A stretch of DNA of 57,431 nucleotides, counting the filler, from Ionaspis alba (Eukaryota), in assembly GCA_964255285.1 (NCBI GenBank). It is 6 parts of 6 records of this genome, joined end to end, with 100 filler letters (N's around TTAATTAATTAA, not from the genome) between each part and the next. Parts side by side here need not be neighbours in the genome. Positions count along the whole stretch, not along the records: positions 28,803 to 38,280 come from CAXUUL010000670.1; 5 more parts are not named here. The stretch is one strand, 5' to 3'. Shown here piece by piece: positions 9,532 through 47,958 of this stretch. Every line of letters starts with the position of its first letter. The stretch's first letter is position 1. The notes below the pieces were generated by a model that did no database searches, was not told the DNA's origin, and was given only the letters and a program-made list of their open reading frames with translations. A program made the translations under genes and the position numbers.

Positions 9532-9631
9532 NNNNNNNNNNNNNNNNNNNNNNNNNNNNNNNNNNNNNNNNNNNNTTAATTAATTAANNNNNNNNNNNNN
9601 NNNNNNNNNNNNNNNNNNNNNNNNNNNNNNN
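9532..9631. other. Artificial contig linker (44N-TTAATTAATTAA-44N)
   Basis: Six-frame stop spacer flanked by 44 N on each side. Confidence 0.97.
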
Positions 9632-16954: not shown

Positions 16955-18988
16955 CTACTCCATCGCCCTCCCTCGTCCCATTCGCTCGATATTACTCATG
17001 ATCCCACTTCTCAGTCCCTGTCCGACCACATTTCCACTCGTGGTCCTTGGCTTCATCATCCCAATCCTACTCTCTCCGAGCCCACCTAGACCTCTCCCGG
17101 GTCCGGTGGAGGCTTTCAGCATAGGCGGACGCGAGAGACTAGCTTTAAAGTTCTCGTTGGAAGGTGCTGGCAGAGGCTGTGCCATCGTGGCTGGTGGCAT
17201 AGAGGATTCAAGAAGCAGCATTTCTGAGACGGCAGTAACAAGCTCGCTGTTTTCCTTCCTCGAGGTCTCGAGGTCGGACCGGAGAAGGGCATTGTCATTT
17301 CGGACGGTTTCCATCTCCGTCGCGAGGACTGCCAGATCCGTCTCGAGCGATTCAAGTTTCTTGGCCTGAACGTCCTGTCGGGCTTTTTCCTCTTCACTTG
17401 CTTCGGGCTTGTGCGAGCTAGGAACAACGCCAGACATCGTGGCGTCACGACCAAGCTTCAACTCCTCGTTCTCCTTGGTCACGTCCTCAACTTTGGTCTG
17501 TAGTTCGCGGATGCGCTTTTCCCATCGAGCTTCGTAGCTCTTCTTCAGAGCAGAAACTTTAGTCTCGTGCTTAGCTTTATAAAGGGTATGAAGCTCCCGG
17601 GCGACTTTTTCAACTGCGACTTCGACGGCTTTGTTGGTAGTACCAGAGCCGGGAGTGCTGACATCTCGGGATGTCCCTGGGGCGGGAGTTACAGTGGCGG
17701 TACCAGCTTCAAGACCAGCTACTTTGCTTTCCGCCTCGGCCGCTCGAAGGTCGGCCTCTTCGCAGCGTTTTTCTAGATCCTTTGTCTTGGTCGCGAGATC
17801 CTGGCGTTCCCTTTCCCCTAGCAGGATCTCTGCTCTGATGTCATGAAGGACCTTTTGCATTTCCTTGTCGCGTCTCTCCCATTCAAGTTTCTCCGTTTGG
17901 AGCTGTTCTTTCGCGTTTTGATGCTCGAATGATTCATCGAGGACGTCGCCAACACGTCGCTCAGCGTTATCTTTAGCCTCTTTAAGACTGGTGATCTCAG
18001 CTTCTTTACCGCTGAGGGTAGCACGAAGGGAGGAGATTTGTGAAAGGTAGGAGGATTTAAGATTTTCGAGTTCGCGAGGAGTGATTGTTGGCACAGAGCG
18101 TGGTGTCGGAGCTGGAGGAAGGTCAAAGTCGAGAAGGTTTGTTAGGTGCCGTGCTTCCGAGGGTGATGCAGGCTGCAATCTTTCTCGCGTGGGTGAGCGT
18201 TGTCCATGGCTCGCAGCATAACCACTGACGTCCGGTTGTCTTTGAGATTTGGATGGTGAAGGGCGGGAAGCACGTGTTGGGGAGCGATTCGAAGGTTGAG
18301 AGTACGATGGCAGTTGACCGGTAAATTCAAGAAGAAGATTTGTGGTATCATCTGAGTCGGTCGGATGGGCGCGCCTAGGTGTAGGAGATGAGGGTATGTC
18401 GTCGTCGTGGTCACGTCTTCTGGCTGTGCCAGGGGTGGTAGGTCTGCTACGGTGAGGAGATCGATCTGAGTCGCGATATCTCGAGCTCTTGCTTGGACCG
18501 CTAGTCTCACTCCTTGTGGGAGATCGGTTGTTGCGTGGAAGCATGGGTATGACTGAAAAAGTGCTGTCGTCTGCTCCGATGTAATTCTTCGCACCTCCAG
18601 CCATTGACATTGTCTCATGACCGGCCTCAGAAAATACTTGAGTCTTGGTGCCATGCAACTCTTGGATCACTCTTGTAAGACCTTCGTTTTCTCTCAAAGC
18701 ATTTTCTGTAAGAGGTATGCATTCTGGACTAGGCTTCTTCGGCGAGGGTTGCTTGCTAGGATTTCTAGGTTTTCCGGGGGAACGGAGTGTCAAATCGACA
18801 TCTTCGACAAAGGGCGAGCTGGGAGGCAAGGTATCGTCCTCGTGAAAGGCATTCTCATGATTATGATCCATGGTGTAACTTCGAGATTCGATTGTGGTCA
18901 GACTCTTGTAATTGTTAGTACGCGCGATAGTTGCTGGAGAACGAACGTTTTGGCCCGAAGCGGATAGCGGTGACAAAGGGAGAGCCAT
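16955..18988 (-). CDS. Coiled-coil protein with a Slk19/fungal TACC-type domain (spindle/kinetochore-associated)
   Basis: Single long ORF with an S/P-rich N-half and coiled coils. The motif AVEKVARELHTLYKAKHETKVSALKKSYEARWEKRIREL matches my recollection of the Kinetocho_Slk19/Fungal_TACC Pfam consensus. Confidence 0.75.
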   Translation of the reverse strand: MALPLSPLSASGQNVRSPATIARTNNYKSLTTIESRSYTMDHNHENAFHEDDTLPPSSPFVEDVDLTLRSPGKPRNPSKQPSPKKPSPECIPLTENALRENEGLTRVIQELHGTKTQVFSEAGHETMSMAGGAKNYIGADDSTFSVIPMLPRNNRSPTRSETSGPSKSSRYRDSDRSPHRSRPTTPGTARRRDHDDDIPSSPTPRRAHPTDSDDTTNLLLEFTGQLPSYSQPSNRSPTRASRPSPSKSQRQPDVSGYAASHGQRSPTRERLQPASPSEARHLTNLLDFDLPPAPTPRSVPTITPRELENLKSSYLSQISSLRATLSGKEAEITSLKEAKDNAERRVGDVLDESFEHQNAKEQLQTEKLEWERRDKEMQKVLHDIRAEILLGERERQDLATKTKDLEKRCEEADLRAAEAESKVAGLEAGTATVTPAPGTSRDVSTPGSGTTNKAVEVAVEKVARELHTLYKAKHETKVSALKKSYEARWEKRIRELQTKVEDVTKENEELKLGRDATMSGVVPSSHKPEASEEEKARQDVQAKKLESLETDLAVLATEMETVRNDNALLRSDLETSRKENSELVTAVSEMLLLESSMPPATMAQPLPAPSNENFKASLSRPPMLKASTGPGRGLGGLGESRIGMMKPRTTSGNVVGQGLRSGIMSNIERMGRGRAME

Positions 18989-19119
18989 GCTCAATGTGAC
19001 AACGAAAAAGTGAAAACGCGCGAAGTCTCCTGGAAGAATCTAGTGCTAATTGCATAGACAGATACGAAAGAATGGACATAGTGCGGATCTCGCAAGCAGA
19101 AAGTAAACAGAGCTAATGG

Positions 19120-19219
19120 NNNNNNNNNNNNNNNNNNNNNNNNNNNNNNNNNNNNNNNNNNNNTTAATTAATTAANNNNNNNNNNNNNNNNNNNNNNNNN
19201 NNNNNNNNNNNNNNNNNNN
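19120..19219. other. Artificial contig linker
   Basis: 44N-TTAATTAATTAA-44N. Confidence 0.97.
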
Positions 19220-20771
19220 GTGGGCGGTTGTTGGAGGGATTCCCAGGTTTGGCGCTCGGTTTGTAGACTGTTTGCGTTAGCTGTGTGCTTTGAAGGGCTA
19301 GTTAGCGATGTAGAGGGAAAGCTTACCGGGCTATTTGTTGCTCGAGTTCTTCGATCTTGGCGGCGTTGGCAAGGTTCTTGGGGTTTGGCTTGGGAGTTTG
19401 AGGGGGTGGTGCTGTTTCTTCTTCCTGAGGTGGTTGTTAGCTGTGTGATAGGGGGATTGGCGCAGTCGGGAGATATTACTCGTGAGAACCAATCTGACAT
19501 TTCGGATTTCGCGGAGAAGTCTTTGAGCAGTTGTTGCTGGATTTCACGGGCTGAGGCTGTTAGCTTTGGTCTATGTGGAGTATGGGAATCCGGAGAGGGA
19601 ATTACCGGCAAGCTTTGCATGGCTGTCCTCCGAATCGAACGATGGCTTTTCTCCAAGAGCCCTCGTCCCGCACCATGTCAGGAGCTGCTTCATCCGCCGT
19701 GGTTCTAGCAGATCACTGGCGATGTGCTTGTAGAATTCTGAGCTTTCGACTTCGTCGTGAGGTAAAGCTTTACCACTGTTAGAGTCCCCTTCTCCACATT
19801 CTCATCGAGGTAGAATTTTACCGTTTGATTTCCCGCTATCTATCAAAGAGCTCGCCCTTCTTCCACGCATCCCGAGACTGCTCCTTCGACTGCCGTCTCC
19901 ACCTCCCTTCCGCATCTCTTTATTCCGCCGTATTATTGGTGTATCGGCAAATGGCAACGCGATCTTCGTGACATCCCTCGATCCGTCTATAGGTTCCACT
20001 TGGACTTGCGATGTTCCTCCCACAATATCCACTGTATCTTGCGGTTCCTGGTCTACTTGTGCAGTATCCGTTTCATTCTCTTTACTGACCGCAGGCTTCG
20101 GAGCAGGTTTTTCTTTCGGTCTCCGCTTCTTGACTTCCAAAGGCGGAGGTTCCACTATGGTCTTGTCTCCACTGTTCCGTGTACTCCTCCGCCGCTTTGG
20201 CTCAGGTACTGTAGTCTCCGCTGGCACAGCATCCACCAACTCGTAAGATTTCTTCCGCGACTTTCTCGAATGAGCTGCTCTCGGCGCGTCTTCACGCACT
20301 TCTTCCAATACGGGCTCTGGAAGCTTTGGAGGAGGCGCTGCTTTGGCCCGCTTTGATCGAGTTCGTGTGAAAGCAAATCCATCGTCCTCTTCATCGTAGT
20401 CTGTATCCCAAAATCAGCTCAATCTACACTTGCTTACTTCGTAGCACGCCTATTCCTCCGATTGTTCGAACCAACACAGATGCTGTTCTTGACGGGCAAG
20501 AAGCATTGTACGCACCATGTTTTCTTTTTGCCCTTCCACCGGACGCCGTGCTCCCAGTACCATTCGCGCCAGCTTTCCCTCCTCTTGAACTCGCACCATT
20601 CGTCTGACTTGCTTTCCCTTTCTCCGCTGCGTGTCCAACCCCGTTCACGTATGGCGCGTCCTCCTTGTCCGCTAACCTGTCGCTCGTTCTCCGTGTACTC
20701 CGCCGCAAGTCCACCATCGTATGCGAATTCGTGAGCAACTGCAACGGAGAGCGCGTCGCGTAGGCTGTCAT
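19220..20771 (-). CDS. mis13: Kinetochore Mis12-complex subunit Mis13/Dsn1, multi-exon, 3' end cut by the contig edge
   Basis: TKIALPFADTPIIRRNKEMRK...RRSSLGMRGRRASSL, then ALPHDEVESSEFYKHIASDLLEPRRMKQLLTWCG, AREIQQQLLKDF...SDWFSR and PNPKNLANAAKIEELEQQIAR. Confidence 0.85.
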
Positions 20772-28702: not shown

Positions 28703-28802
28703 NNNNNNNNNNNNNNNNNNNNNNNNNNNNNNNNNNNNNNNNNNNNTTAATTAATTAANNNNNNNNNNNNNNNNNNNNNNNNNNNNNNNNNNNNNNNNNN
28801 NN
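28703..28802. other. Artificial contig linker
   Basis: 44N-TTAATTAATTAA-44N. Confidence 0.97.
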
Positions 28803-31249: not shown

Positions 31250-31972
31250 CTGGGAAGCAGCCAAGGAAGTCTCGGGCAGATCTCCCAATACTTTTGTCAT
31301 CCACTTAGCCGGGCCTCGTGTGCCTCGGTAAATCTAAGAGAAATGACAGTGCTCTGGACTAAAGAACCGCCCGAATTGCGAGTCTATCTCAGAGCTCTTT
31401 CATCAAATAGAATCGATCGCTTGGATATGACGATAACCTGTTTTACCAATTCCTCTACAGCATCTCGAAAGTATGTAGAGGCACAGACAGAGAATTACTC
31501 CTCCATTCGATGGGTGGTATCAAAGTCAAGCAGATCCATTGATGCAAGTCGTCTACTATCCCCGTCTCTGTATTCTCTCTCCTGAGATTTCTTTACAACC
31601 AGCCCAATTCTATCGATCATAGTGTCTTGGTGGTGGAGATAATCGATCGCGGCCTACACATTTCGTCTATCGCAACCTCATCTTGTGTGTCCAGCCGAAC
31701 CAGGACCTCCTCGCCAGGCCATCTAAGCTGTAGAGCCTAGTGTCAAATAGCCCGGTGTCCTCGTCTTCTCCAAACCTTTGGTTCACCAATCCTCTCTCGT
31801 ATCGTCGAATGGTCTCGAGACCATAGTCGTTCTCTTCGTCCTCACTCTCCTCATGACTAGACCTCTCCGCATCCTCACGAGCCTTCTTAGCAATTCTGAT
31901 GTATATGTCGTCCTTAGCCTCCTCTCGAGTTCCTAGCCCCTCAGTCTCCCGCGGCGCACTTGCTTTTGGCAC
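31250..31972 (-). pseudogene. Possible decayed ORF of unknown family
   Basis: Protein-like stretches in shifting frames (EEAKDDIYIRIAKKAREDAE..., RWPGEEVLVRLDTQDEVAIDE, MDLLDFDTTHRMEE*FSVCASTYFRDAVEELVKQVIVISKRSILFDERALR*) with stops at 31495-31497 and 31384-31386. Confidence 0.3.
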
Positions 31973-32909
31973 GATAGGAAATATTTCAATAGAGCGGAGT
32001 GTGCCAATCTGCGGCGGTCATACAAAGCGAGGCAAGACAAGTTCCATGATCGCGAAAAACTCAGGAGTAACAGCTTGACAGCTCAGAGCAGGTTCGGGAG
32101 AAGCAGCCTACGACGAGAAGGAAGATAAAAGACAAAGACAAGAGGTAGAAATGGGAACGGGTTTGTGCCGTGCACAATGCGGTGTGCGGGGTCAACTAGC
32201 ACTGGTTTTGTTCATCTCCAATTTTGTAGAGAAAATGGAGCAGTTTCGTGATAGACTTGGGGCTTAGCGAGGCGAGGTGTATCCTTCCGCGTGCGAGGCT
32301 CGATAATCTCACACGGCGTGAAAAGTGACATGTTTTGTGGGCATACATTGTAAAACGATGCCAAAAGAGAGTTTGATCGACATTTAGTACTAGATCAAGT
32401 ACTAAGGATGGACTTGAGGTGGTTGGCTATGTGGCAGTGAACGATCAAAACCTAGGGCTTGCGATGTTAAGCGAAGTAGCCGCAATTCGCTTAGATCTAG
32501 GGCTTCGATACAAATATCTCTGCAATCGTTTATTCTATATCGTGGGCTTGTACGCTTCGATCAGATCGAAAGAAACAAGTAAGAAACAATATACTCCGAT
32601 CTTTGTACTGCAAGAACCGGGACCTCACATGTTATGGACGAAAGGTTCGTCCCTTATCATGACTTGACTGATGTCAACATAAATTGAGACTGGATCCTGA
32701 GATCCGCAATCTACCTGTCCTTCTCGGGCGTCGACGAGACAACAGAATGCAGATCTTGGCCGACATGTTCGGCAGGCTGAGCTTTCTCACATGAGTCGCT
32801 GACAGCCATCGTTGCATGAATTCTGCGCTCCGGCTCAGAATTTGACTGCGATTCGAGGCTAAACAGCAATCGAGAGAGTTCGGACTCTGCTCCCAAGGTG
32901 ATGAGCTCT

Positions 32910-33968
32910 TCAAGTGCCATTTTCCATAAATCCAATGTAAATCCTTGCTGTCGCAATAAGCTGGTCTAGTAGCTGTTCGATCGACTTCTGCTCCATATCT
33001 GAAGAAATTTCGTCTCCGCTTCCCGTCGCTCTCGATGTGGTGGGAGCAAATATTTTGACCTTCCCTTCCTTGCCCAAGGTGAATGCTGCACATGCAACCT
33101 TAGAGATGAAGACGTCTTTGTACTCCATTTCCGGAGCAAGGTGAACTTGAAGTTACTGCACTAGAGAAGCCACGAATGGTCCATGATGTGCGATATCACC
33201 GTCCCGTTTTCGTTTCCCTCCCGCGAACACGGATCGCACGTGTTGATGATCATTACATATAGCTTGCCCTTGTGAACAAAGCCAGAGATGTCCTCCCTCA
33301 TCATCATGATATCCATGCTTCTTAAGCTAGGAGATATAGGTGCTCGAAAACCTAAGCTTAATTGGATGTCCTTGACGACCTCTTCTCTATGTCCTGGCAT
33401 ACTGCTAGTAATGTGACCGAGAGGTAACCTTCTAATGCATTTTCAACCAGGCCGTTTGATAGCTTCAGAGGTTCAATCCTAGTATCGAATGTAGTTTCCA
33501 GGAAGTAGTCGAAAAGGATTTGTCGAAGTGCGGTCGACATAACGTGTGAGAAGGAGTGGTAGGTAGGTCTGACCATTATTTACAGTATCCCTGGAGCTGG
33601 CATCACACAGTAGAGTAGTGCTATATGTGCTCTTCTCATACTCTGTCTCAATGCTAAGCCCTTCGAAATGCCCAAGCTTGTGTGCCTTTGATGTCAATGT
33701 ATCCCACCTCAGTACTCCTGTTGCCACCAAGCGAACGCCAGCGATAACTCTTCAAGACTCCAAGTTTGGTGGGCCCTTCGTCCTGCTCTCCGTGTTGTTG
33801 CGCACACCCTGTCGGATGTCTCCTTTCAATTTATCACTGCATCGACTGTGCATGAGTCTGCAGGCTTTTTGTCCTGAAGAGTGGTGACGCTGCGGGGTAG
33901 TGAAGCGGTGAAAGGCGGAAAAGCGTGTAGGTCGTGTTGTAGATTGGATCCTCCTGAAGTGGAGCCAT
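32910..33968 (-). pseudogene. fta1: CENP-L/Fta1 (inner kinetochore CCAN subunit) pseudogene
   Basis: Collinear CENP-L-like blocks across six frame changes: MAPLQEDPIYNTTYTLFRLSPLH / DKLKGDIRQGVR / KLGVLKSYRWRSLG / GLSIETEYEKSTYSTTLL...TYLPLLLTR / MSTALRQILFDYFLETTFDTRIEPLKLS...LEGYL / KDIQLSLGFRAPISPSLRSMDI..REDISGFVHKGK / GPFVASLVQ*LQVHLA...VFISKVACAAFTLGKEGKVKIFAP. Nonsense codon at 33153-33155. Confidence 0.8.
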
Positions 33969-34358
33969 TGCTAAGTAGACATTTCCGAGTTGTTATTTTG
34001 TTGACAAGGAACGTCATAGGTAAGCAAGAGGACGCGGTAGTCTACTGTACCTTGCAGACACGCTAGATGAGGGTTGGCCATGGGTCTGTGCTATCGATTG
34101 CAAGCACCCCTCGGCACTCCACAGTCTAAATCGGACTGCCATAACACCAGAGATAATCAAGTGTCTGAACATTTTCTGGTCTGACAACTACAGCTATTGC
34201 ACGTCCCAATCTACCTAGTTCTAGGAAGTCCCCATGCAGCACCCAGGTCATCCTGCGTCCTGCTATCGGTTTGCTCATATGAAAGGACCGTGATCAAAGC
34301 TATTTCCTGCCCGCGGCAGGTTGATTGAGAATACGCCATCGAACACGCTGCGTGAAGG

Positions 34359-37300
34359 ATGGACCGAAACAGGAAGCGTATGCTATACTTCACCTTCAAT
34401 TGATCCTTCGAGACCTCAGCTAAACGAGGGTAGGGGAATTGCGCGATCTGAATATTCGAGCTTGGGCAGGCGAAACCGGTACTGTGCTTATTGCATTAAT
34501 GACATAACACGTATGGATTACTCACGGACTATAGAAGCCTTTACGACCCAGGGATCTCTTGACTCCTCGCTGAAGAAGAACACAGCCTTCATCAAGCGCT
34601 TGCGAACTGGTATTGTCGCAACATCTGTTCCGACCTTCCTTCAGGAAACCCGCACGCTCTCACTTCACAAATATTTGTCTGAGGTGATCTCCGCAAGCTA
34701 CGAAGGGTTATGTAAACTCAAGACTTCAGGTGAAATTGCGGCCGGGGTGGAAGTGGTGAGCGCGCTTCACCAGCGATTTGGTCCAGCAGAGTATACCTGT
34801 TATCTTGGATGGCTTCTGGGACGGGGTCTTAGCACACCAGACAAGTCGCAGCTGAAAAGTCTGGCACAAGACGTAAAGGAAAAGGAGGAAAAAGAGAGAC
34901 TGGCAAGACAGCGCGTTCTTTTGAAGGTGGTCACAGAGTTATGGCTTGTGGGAATATTGAGGAGCTTGGAAGACGTATCGAGGCCGGAAGATGCTACGGT
35001 GAGGGGAAAGGAGAATGCTGGATCTAATAGTACCAAGCTGGCTGAGATGGTGAATAAGGTGAAGCCTGGAAAAAGTAATACGAGCCCAGACGCCGAAGCT
35101 TTCCCTCTGGAGGTTCTCAAAGATCTACTTGGGCACGACAAGGATCACCTCAACGTTCCTCTGGTTGTGTTGTTCGTCAAGACTTTTGGATGGGATATTC
35201 TTGGCATCAAACCGACAACAGAAGGTGGACGTCAGACAGTTCAGGCCGATGGTGCCACCAGCACGACAATCGAAGGCGACGCGCAGAGCTCGGCGGACGA
35301 AAGTGCTGAGGCTGGTAACGCGTCGAGCGACCAGCCCATCACGTCACCGGAGCTCCAGCAGCGTTTCAAGAACATTCTTGATCGATATCTGGAAGACGTC
35401 AAAGCTCATGTCATCAGAGACCAGATGGCAATCACAGCGCAAGGAAGACGGAATGCCGAAGTTTATGTTAAGTCGGGTGAAGTGTTCGAGGATCGTCAGG
35501 CCAATTATGACAAACAACTCAAGGCACAGGAGAAGCTGGTTACTAGCACTCAGTTTCTTTGCGAAGTGTTGGGATCTGAGATGCCCGATCTCAAGGAGAA
35601 GGACCCCACGGATGTCACGAGCTCTGCCACCATTGGATTGATCAAGACCGGAGAATATCTACGTGGCCAAGGTGATGGGGCAGGTATTTGGGAAGACGAA
35701 GAAGAACGTCGATTCTACGAGAACCTCGTAGACCTCAAAGATCGGGTCCCGGGCATCCTCTTGGAAGATGTCAAAAAGAAGAAAGCAGACGCTGACGAGC
35801 AGGTTGGAAAGAGGATTGACAGCACTAGTTCAGCGACTGGGGCAAAGGATGTTCAAGAGAAGAACTCCTCGGCAGAAGTCCCAGAGGACCAATCTACTGC
35901 CATTGCCAATAAGACGGTTGGTGCTCAAGTCGATTCTCTCTTGGCTCGACTTCCAGAACTCCAGAACAAGGAAACTATTGATCAGGCAGCAATAGACTTT
36001 TGTTTTGTCAACTCCAAAGCCTCACGAAATCGACTTCTCAAAGCTGTTCAAGAAGTGCCAAAAGGACGATCTGACTTGCTTCCCATCTATTCAAGACTTG
36101 TTGCTACCCTAGGACGATACCTACCCGACATTTCCAACGGACTAGTTTCACATCTGGATGAAGAATTTCGGAGTCTTCAGCGCCGCAAGCAGAAGGACTT
36201 CTTGGGCCAAGTTCGGACTGGGAACATTCGTTACCTAGCGGAGCTTACCAAATTTGGAGTCGTTCCGGAACATGTCATCTTCCATTGTCTCAAGGTCAGT
36301 ATGGACGATTTCTCCCGCATGAATATTGAAATCATCGGCAATCTGCTGGAGAACTGTGGGCGGTATCTACTTCGCAATCCGGACACTTCTCCTCGAATGA
36401 AGTCTTTCCTGGAAACCCTGCAGCGAAAGAAGGCTGCGCAGCATCTTGGTCAGCAGGAACGCATGATCATCGAGAATGCGATGTACTATGTCAATCCACC
36501 AGAACGTGCAGCAATCCTACAGAAAGAGAGGACTCCGGTTGATCTCTTCCTGCGGAAGCTGATTTACCTGGATATGAACAAACGTACGTACTCAAAAGTC
36601 TTGAAATCGATTCGCAAATTGCATTGGGAGGAGCCTGAGGTGAGTATCTTCACCAATTCAGTCAAACTACCTTTGGCTTATTATTCCAGGTTGTCCAAAT
36701 ACTGGAGAAGATCTTCTCGAAGCCTGGGAAAGTCAAATACAGCAGCGTTCATCTGCTTGCCATTCTCATGTCTGCTCTGTATCGATATCATCAGGACTTC
36801 GTTATCTCCATAATTGACACATTACTGGAACAAATCACTCTCGGTCTTGAGCAAAACGACTTCAAGTTCAACCAGAGACGCATTGCAGAGGTCAGATATC
36901 TTGGTGAGCTTTACAACTACAAGATGGTCGACTCGCCAGTCATATTCGATACGTTGTATCGCATTTTGACTTTTGGCCATGGTGAGTATGCCGTCTCAAA
37001 CCGAGATCAAAAGTTGCTAATATCATCACTTAGCGAACGGCACACCAACACCAGATAAAATCAATCCACTCGACATGCCTGACGATTTCTTCCGCATGCG
37101 TCTCGTCTGCAGCATACTCGACACGTGCGGTGTCTGCTTCGAGCGTGGTGCAGCAAGAAAGAAGCTGGACTTCTTCTTGACTTTCTTCCAGGCACGTTTC
37201 TATGTTCATGACTCTATGGCCCTGCTGACATTGGTCGTAGTACTACATACATACCAAGGAGCCATTACCTATGGACATCGATTTCATGATTCAAGACACC

Positions 37301-38280
37301 TTTGCTCTGACTCGACCCCAGTGGAAACTTGCTACTAATTTTGATGAAGCTGGACGTGCTTTTGCAGATGCAGTTGCACAAAATTACAAGACCCAAGAAC
37401 CTGAGAAGGCTCCCGAGCCTGAAGATGCTGATGACGGTAGTTCTTCTGACGGAGGAGATGAAGATGAGTTTCAAGTTCCAGAAATGGACGAGGTTCATTC
37501 TTCGAGCGAAGAAGCTGAGACAGAGGTTCCTACGACTTCTCTATCAGCTAGATACGCGGCTGATATATGCTCTAGAACTTACCTAACGGAGACAGCAAAC
37601 ATGATTCTGACTTTGAAGAGCATATCGTCGTTACACGCCAGGAAGAAGAACGTGATCCCGAAGCTGAAGCAGATTTCGACAGGGAGCTTGCGAAAATGAT
37701 GTCTGAAAGCATAGATTCCCGCAAGTTCGACCGCAAACCACTGTTCGATGTGCCATTGCCCATGCGACGAGCAAATCGTGATACCAGTCACGCAGGAGAC
37801 GACAGTCCAACTGAAGGAACAACGACGCCACCAGCAACCATGGCCTTTTCACTGATGACCAAGAAAGGGAATCGTCAACAGGTTTGATCCATCAAAGCCT
37901 AAGGACCACCACAACAACCTCTCCTTGCTAATCATTTCCCAGACACGCACAATCGACCTCCCCTCCGACTCGCACTTCGCTATAGCAATGAAAACGCAAA
38001 AAGAAGCCGAACGCGCCGAACAACAGCGCATCAAATCTTTAGTCCTGAATTACGATCTGCAAGACTCCGCAGATCACCACGACGGTACAGCCAAGACATC
38101 TTCTTACTTCTCCCGCTCGAACCCCAATCTCCCCTCGAGCTATTTCCTTCCCCCCAATCCCAACATCACAACAGCAGTCGCTCACAATCCTGTTTCTAAA
38201 GGTCTCGGTGGTGCGGGCGCGGGAGATAGGCACCATGGTGCTTCGTCTTCGTCGTCGTCGGCTGCGCACCATCATCATCA
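34359..38280 (+). CDS. UPF2: Nonsense-mediated mRNA decay factor Upf2 (MIF4G domains), multi-exon, 3' end at or cut by the contig edge
   Basis: Spliced start MDRNRKRELRDLNIRAWAGETEAF...SLDSSLKKNTAFIKRLR; GIWEDEEERRFYENL, NIRYLAELTKFGVVP, LENCGRYLLR, RYLGELYNYKMVDS, FSLMTKKGNRQQ. Confidence 0.95.
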
Positions 38281-38380
38281 NNNNNNNNNNNNNNNNNNNN
38301 NNNNNNNNNNNNNNNNNNNNNNNNTTAATTAATTAANNNNNNNNNNNNNNNNNNNNNNNNNNNNNNNNNNNNNNNNNNNN
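38281..38380. other. Artificial contig linker
   Basis: 44N-TTAATTAATTAA-44N. Confidence 0.97.
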
Positions 38381-47858: not shown

Positions 47859-47958
47859 NNNNNNNNNNNNNNNNNNNNNNNNNNNNNNNNNNNNNNNNNN
47901 NNTTAATTAATTAANNNNNNNNNNNNNNNNNNNNNNNNNNNNNNNNNNNNNNNNNNNN
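47859..47958. other. Artificial contig linker
   Basis: 44N-TTAATTAATTAA-44N. Confidence 0.97.

Follow-up and report, generated by a model that had tools for sequence, protein, structure and literature searches.

A broken CENP-L gene beside UPF2 in the lichen-forming fungus Ionaspis alba

Does Ionaspis alba carry, next to its UPF2 gene, a working gene for the kinetochore protein CENP-L, a decayed duplicate of a gene that works elsewhere, or the remains of its own, sole CENP-L gene? CENP-L is the CCAN subunit that pairs with CENP-N/Mis15/Chl4. We analysed a window, the whole stretch of 57,431 nucleotides (filler included) taken from assembly GCA_964255285.1. Five linkers divide the window (9532-9631, 19120-19219, 28703-28802, 38281-38380, and 47859-47958), each consisting of 44 N, TTAATTAATTAA, and a further 44 N, where TTAATTAATTAA is a six-frame stop linker, and the pieces between linkers fall slowly in size (9488, 9483, 9478, and 9478 nt). 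The window thus strings together separate contigs from a single bin, and arguments from neighbourhood are invalid across linkers. Along the contig at 28803-38280, the order is the oxidoreductase gene, about 2.5 kb with no recognised domain, CENP-L (32910-33968), and UPF2. The features of this contig are:

28803..30412, minus strand: molybdopterin-oxidoreductase gene (Pfam Oxidored_molyb), at the contig end opposite UPF2, with which it forms the microsynteny anchor
32910..33968, minus strand: CENP-L/Fta1/Iml3 pseudogene, full length, with its ATG retained (33968-33966) and its natural stop at 32912-32910
33969..34358, no strand: 390-bp intergenic region separating the divergent CENP-L and UPF2 start codons
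34359..38280, plus strand: UPF2/Nmd2, exon 1 (MDRNRKR...) from the ATG at 34359, with MIF4G and Upf2 domains, truncated by the contig end (38280)

Identity and lesions of the CENP-L pseudogene

The results of a Pfam profile search establish the identity of the gene. From 33968 to 32910, the minus strand splits into eight stop-to-stop pieces, five of which match PF13092 (CENP-L); the matches are collinear, cover profile positions 1-33, 68-135, 135-174, 182-225, and 245-306 of 307, have E values of 9e-6 to 3e-11, and, with scores of 25.6, 27.5, 24.4, 28.0, and 43.6 bits, reach the curated family cut-off of 24.4 bits. The remaining three pieces gave no CENP-L match in Pfam. The pseudogene is thus like CENP-L/Fta1 (S. 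pombe)/Iml3 (S. cerevisiae) in being collinear with the family over profile positions 1-306 of 307, and the five matches confirm an identity that the original prediction had assigned from motifs. A phmmer search with the C-terminal piece returned 23 proteins, which, apart from the window's own 72-aa fragment, are 31-58% identical to it and mostly 287-398 aa long; the target was a set of 1.84 billion representatives in which each 50% cluster is reduced to a single protein, and a closer relative could thus be masked by the distant protein chosen for its cluster. (A word-based protein search with the same C-terminal piece gave no match, a limit of that tool, given the 23 proteins from phmmer.) The named relatives from phmmer are Pleopsidium flavum, Loxospora ochrophaea, and the Stictis urceolatum cluster; a further search added CENP-L homologues of Xylographa bjoerkii, Thelotrema, Diploschistes, and Geoglossomycetes. 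Within the family, the relatives Xylographa bjoerkii, Loxospora ochrophaea, the Stictis urceolatum cluster, and Pleopsidium flavum carry intact proteins of 326-364 aa, whereas the Ionaspis alba copy is broken.

The nature of the breaks was read from a frameshift-aware aligner written for this analysis, with five intact lichen-fungus CENP-L proteins and a profile of 16 homologues as references. The alignments cover residues ~10-340 of the five homologues (330-360 aa) and profile columns 10-336 of 348, and the pseudogene has ~40-48% identical residues in aligned blocks with intact CENP-L proteins of lichen fungi and Geoglossomycetes. The five pairwise alignments and the profile alignment give six frame changes and one in-frame TAA, with a frame path along the pseudogene of 2-0-2-0-1-0-2. 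The lesions, all on the minus strand, are:

33836..33845, minus strand: frame change 1, insertion of a single base after '...THAQ' and before 'RCSDKLKGD...', outside any homopolymer
33780..33804, minus strand: frame change 2, one base missing, in a variable region that leaves the exact position loose
33683..33707, minus strand: frame change 3, net +1/-2, position approximate
33541, minus strand: frame change 4, a clean single-base insertion within the conserved LPLLLTR|M(P/S)xxLR motif
33380..33422, minus strand: frame change 5, net -1/+2, at an approximate position in a variable linker
33198..33282, minus strand: frame change 6, net -1/+2, at an approximate position in a variable region that is polymorphic in length
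33153..33155, minus strand: in-frame TAA at column 267, a Tyr in all 16 intact homologues

The insertion at 33541 takes the same place in all five pairwise alignments and in the profile alignment. In one of the five pairwise alignments, that to homologue P0016, the variable C-terminal tail shows two further events and another stop, which we take to be alignment noise. Translation from the retained ATG would end after 44 codons and, with six frameshifting indels and a nonsense codon, the full-length protein therefore cannot be produced. We conclude that 32910-33968 is a pseudogene of the CENP-L family, with no working open frame. The frameshift-aware alignments thereby uphold the pseudogene status that had been claimed for this gene, together with the frame changes and the TAA on which the claim was built, the coordinates of which prove accurate to a few tens of bases.

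Presence of the lesions in the DNA, with UPF2 as control

A broken frame in a draft assembly could in principle be an assembly or sequencing artefact, or reflect unrecognised introns, in which case CENP-L would really be intact; the metagenome bin behind the window is indeed fragmented, and the window includes linkers and scaffold gaps. The results with an independent assembly argue strongly against this. A Logan contig from run X1 (7816 nt, depth 126.5) aligns to window positions 31600-37532 with zero differences and zero gaps, the assembly being independent although the sample may be the source of the window. The breaks, moreover, fall outside homopolymer runs, and the 1168 codons read in UPF2, on this contig, are free of lesions. 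With respect to introns, conserved residues abut 33541 on both sides, and an intron therefore cannot fit within this motif. At the seven CENP-L junctions, the candidate GT-AG introns either fall short in length (20-35 nt), are poorly supported by signals, or would remove conserved blocks; in the seven other window genes screened at junctions, introns are 45-72 nt long and their donor and branch signals are good. None of the CENP-L junctions offers a credible intron, which rules out introns as the cause of the breaks. Repeat-induced point mutation (RIP) was also considered as a cause and is ruled out by normal indices (TpA/ApT 0.73; (CpA+TpG)/(ApC+GpT) 1.27). We conclude that the CENP-L lesions are present in the DNA and are not assembly noise, and we regard an artefact or hidden introns as extremely improbable. 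Both the absence of explaining introns and the reality of the indels, as originally proposed, are borne out, the former by the junction screen and the latter by the identical X1 contig.

Run X1 also bears on variation within the sample. At 37533-37569, the main contig gives way to two variants of depth 46.4 and 77.3 (sum about the 126.5 of the main contig), which differ by three bases and one 1-nt deletion within UPF2 intron 4. The variants suggest that the sample holds two haplotypes or strains of the fungus, both of which would carry this broken CENP-L. The lesions appear to be fixed in the sampled population. In run X2, from the same study and with another organism label, there are fragments identical to window 31600-37100 at depth 1-4, which points to low-level presence of Ionaspis alba or to carry-over between libraries. 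Runs X2 and X3 (same study, other organisms) both contain diverged UPF2 pieces, and neither yielded a comparable CENP-L.

The adjacent UPF2 gene provides a control for the state of the sequence around the pseudogene. From 34513 onward, UPF2 has five GT/GC-AG introns of 49-61 nt and 1168 codons without a stop, as had been expected of a lesion-free neighbour, and 906 of the 1168 codons are identical to UPF2 of Xylographa trunciseda. Its start at 34359 likewise agrees with the 390-bp head-to-head spacing claimed for the two genes. There are seven lesions in 1059 nt of CENP-L vs. none in 3504 coding nt of UPF2; by our arithmetic, the probability that all seven would fall in CENP-L under an even spread is ~4e-5. 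We conclude that the damage is local to CENP-L, as measured against one control gene compared with its homologue. UPF2 is 79, 78, and 77% identical to the proteins of Xylographa trunciseda, X. vitiligo, and Lambiella insularis, respectively; from this similarity to Xylographa and Lambiella, the host is therefore a lichen-forming fungus near Ostropomycetidae.

The list of UPF2 relatives yielded a separate observation about public UPF2 models, which are often 1640-1950 aa long. Long models have an extra aspartic-protease domain in Teloschistales MAGs, Lecanora helva, and Psora, and models named as FHA-domain proteins occur in Xylona heveae and Aspergillus ibericus. The long models are probably fusions with the downstream neighbour made in automatic annotation.

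Age of the damage, copy number, and history of the locus

The sequence that remains in the pseudogene speaks to when the gene died. Of 50 columns conserved at 90% or more, the pseudogene retains 43, vs. 46-50 of 50-55 in intact homologues scored leave-one-out. In a maximum-likelihood tree of 40 rows, in which the pseudogene was read through with X at every break, it falls inside a clade with 99/96 support that also contains Xylographa, Loxospora, Stictis, Thelotrema, and Diploschistes, and its end branch is 1.08 long vs. 1.22, 1.04, and 0.99 in neighbours. Retained conserved residues, an ordinary branch, and a place in an Ostropomycetidae clade together show that the gene was inherited vertically, was maintained by selection through most of its history, and died recently. 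Six indels stand beside modest substitution damage, in our judgement a somewhat large proportion of indels for neutral decay and to that extent a point against the reading preferred below.

On balance, we lean towards the reading that this is a sole, recently dead CENP-L, that is, a unitary pseudogene. According to this reading, the gene would be the host's own CENP-L, vertically inherited within Ostropomycetidae lichen fungi and selected until recently; the working copy would be gone, and selection on CENP-L would have been relaxed. A possible cause of relaxed selection is that other linker routes carry mitosis; alternatively, meiosis may be rare or absent in the lineage. A rival reading is that a CENP-L copy was inserted between the oxidoreductase gene and UPF2 and then decayed, in which case a functional CENP-L would exist elsewhere and the kinetochore would be unchanged. 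Searches for a second copy bear on this alternative. Among X1 contigs (organism depth 126) there is no second CENP-L contig at least 80% alike, though UPF2 stretches of other organisms at 82% likeness surfaced in the same test; the filter drops some records and copies less than about 80% alike are missed, so the gap proves nothing, but a young duplicate should resemble its parent. An old duplicate should have a long branch and heavy decay, and neither is seen. In the phmmer results, which cover the same 1.84 billion representatives, only the window's 72-aa fragment is 100% identical, and the best full-length match is 46% identical. In favour of a duplicate, the bin is fragmented, with window contigs of ~9.5 kb.

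The history of the locus also bears on the duplicate. Metagenome contigs scanned with a UPF2 alignment gave 80 related loci, with UPF2 63-76% identical. A CENP-L profile searched over six frames, which in the window gives six collinear matches, found CENP-L at none of the 80 loci within up to 10 kb on each side, with upstream sequence of at least 1.5 kb present in 59 of the 80 and at least 5 kb in 47. Absence of CENP-L at these loci makes the position beside UPF2 specific to this lineage; judged by the same 80 loci, the pseudogene is not at an orthologue position in relatives. The original prediction had viewed the head-to-head arrangement with UPF2 as an ancestral locus, to be checked by fta1-UPF2 synteny in relatives, and this part of it is not supported.

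The oxidoreductase gene shows what the interval looks like elsewhere. In ten loci (L015, L016, L020, L027, L033, L042, L043, L053, L056, and L080), whose hosts are distant filamentous ascomycetes, the oxidoreductase gene and UPF2 are paired in the same orientation as here, with the oxidoreductase gene 1.5-3.4 kb upstream of UPF2. Open frames were listed for nine of the ten, L015 having given interval coordinates identical to those of L016, and in these nine the interval holds no long open frame; CENP-L is missing from the interval in all ten. In Ionaspis alba, the interval is 4.07 kb, about one gene longer than most. CENP-L thus interrupts a conserved oxidoreductase-UPF2 interval, as an inserted duplicate would, and this counts against the sole-copy reading. 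(At one further locus, L023, an oxidoreductase gene lies downstream of UPF2.) On the other side, the sequence around the pseudogene has no target-site or flanking direct repeats beyond short repeats at chance level, no poly(A) tail, and no transposon traces; the compared loci are distant, as their UPF2 identities indicate; and relocation that left no surviving parent would give the same arrangement. Gene order in these fungi is often reshuffled. Taking these points together, we consider a dead duplicate unlikely and prefer the reading of a sole, recently dead gene.

Kinetochore context

What the death of CENP-L could mean depends on how far fungi can do without it. In fission yeast, fta1 is essential; in budding yeast, CENP-T/Cnn1 is individually dispensable for mitosis. 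In flies, nematodes, and many basidiomycetes, the known losses of CCAN proteins are all ancient and complete. Reproduction in many lichen fungi is largely asexual. We know of no report of CENP-L loss in Ascomycota, and a literature search turned up no account of decaying kinetochore genes in lichen fungi.

One comparison is with the iml3 deletion in budding yeast. According to PMC7846277, Iml3/CENP-L is dispensable in mitosis and required for meiotic kinetochore assembly, and the deletion shows an ascomycete living without CENP-L in mitosis; the deletion is a laboratory construct, whereas the loss in Ionaspis alba would be natural and, in the sample, apparently fixed. A requirement for meiotic, rather than mitotic, kinetochore assembly suggests a link between loss of CENP-L and reduced sexual reproduction.

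A broader reading, raised in the original prediction, makes the death of CENP-L one step in a CCAN loss still under way, in which CENP-L and probably its partners would be decaying together and a CENP-C-based kinetochore would be left, as in Cryptococcus or Drosophila. The dead CENP-L of Ionaspis alba fits this reading, and there is precedent: most CCAN proteins have been lost together and recurrently in Basidiomycota (PMC7794384), and CENP-T-pathway components have been lost recurrently across eukaryotes (PMC9252888). As in those losses, an inner-kinetochore gene is broken here and outer-kinetochore genes would be kept, one of them, Dsn1/Mis13, being present in part. However, in those lineages the genes are absent and the loss is old and network-wide, whereas here there is a recognisable, recently dead gene in an ascomycete. 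Moreover, CENP-L is the one CCAN gene on which the evidence here bears, and mitosis in budding yeast tolerates CENP-L loss (PMC7846277), so the whole network need not go. We treat wider CCAN loss as a real possibility, though less likely than not.

The most far-reaching interpretation, which we put forward tentatively as less likely than not, is that an Ostropomycetidae lichen-forming ascomycete has been caught dismantling its inner kinetochore, in what would be the first CCAN erosion seen in Ascomycota, perhaps tied to loss or rarity of meiosis. From a CENP-L that broke recently in an ascomycete, one could learn which subunits are lost earliest and could date the event; it would also be a natural experiment on whether meiosis is the main process that needs the CCAN. 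If an intact CENP-L exists elsewhere in the genome, the locus would be merely a decayed duplicate, of little interest.

Part of an outer-kinetochore gene is present in the window, on another contig, where Mis13 had been predicted:

19574-20413, minus strand: 5' part of Dsn1/Mis13, matching PF08202 profile positions 2-41 and 43-93, cut at the contig end (19220)

The PF08202 matches bear out that prediction. The Dsn1/Mis13 fragment carries a basic RRSSLGMRGRRASS stretch, which we take to resemble the Aurora-B-regulated autoinhibitory motif. On the adjacent contig, at 16958-19039 (minus strand), lies a gene for a fungal TACC (Alp7-like) spindle protein, with one open frame of 694 codons.
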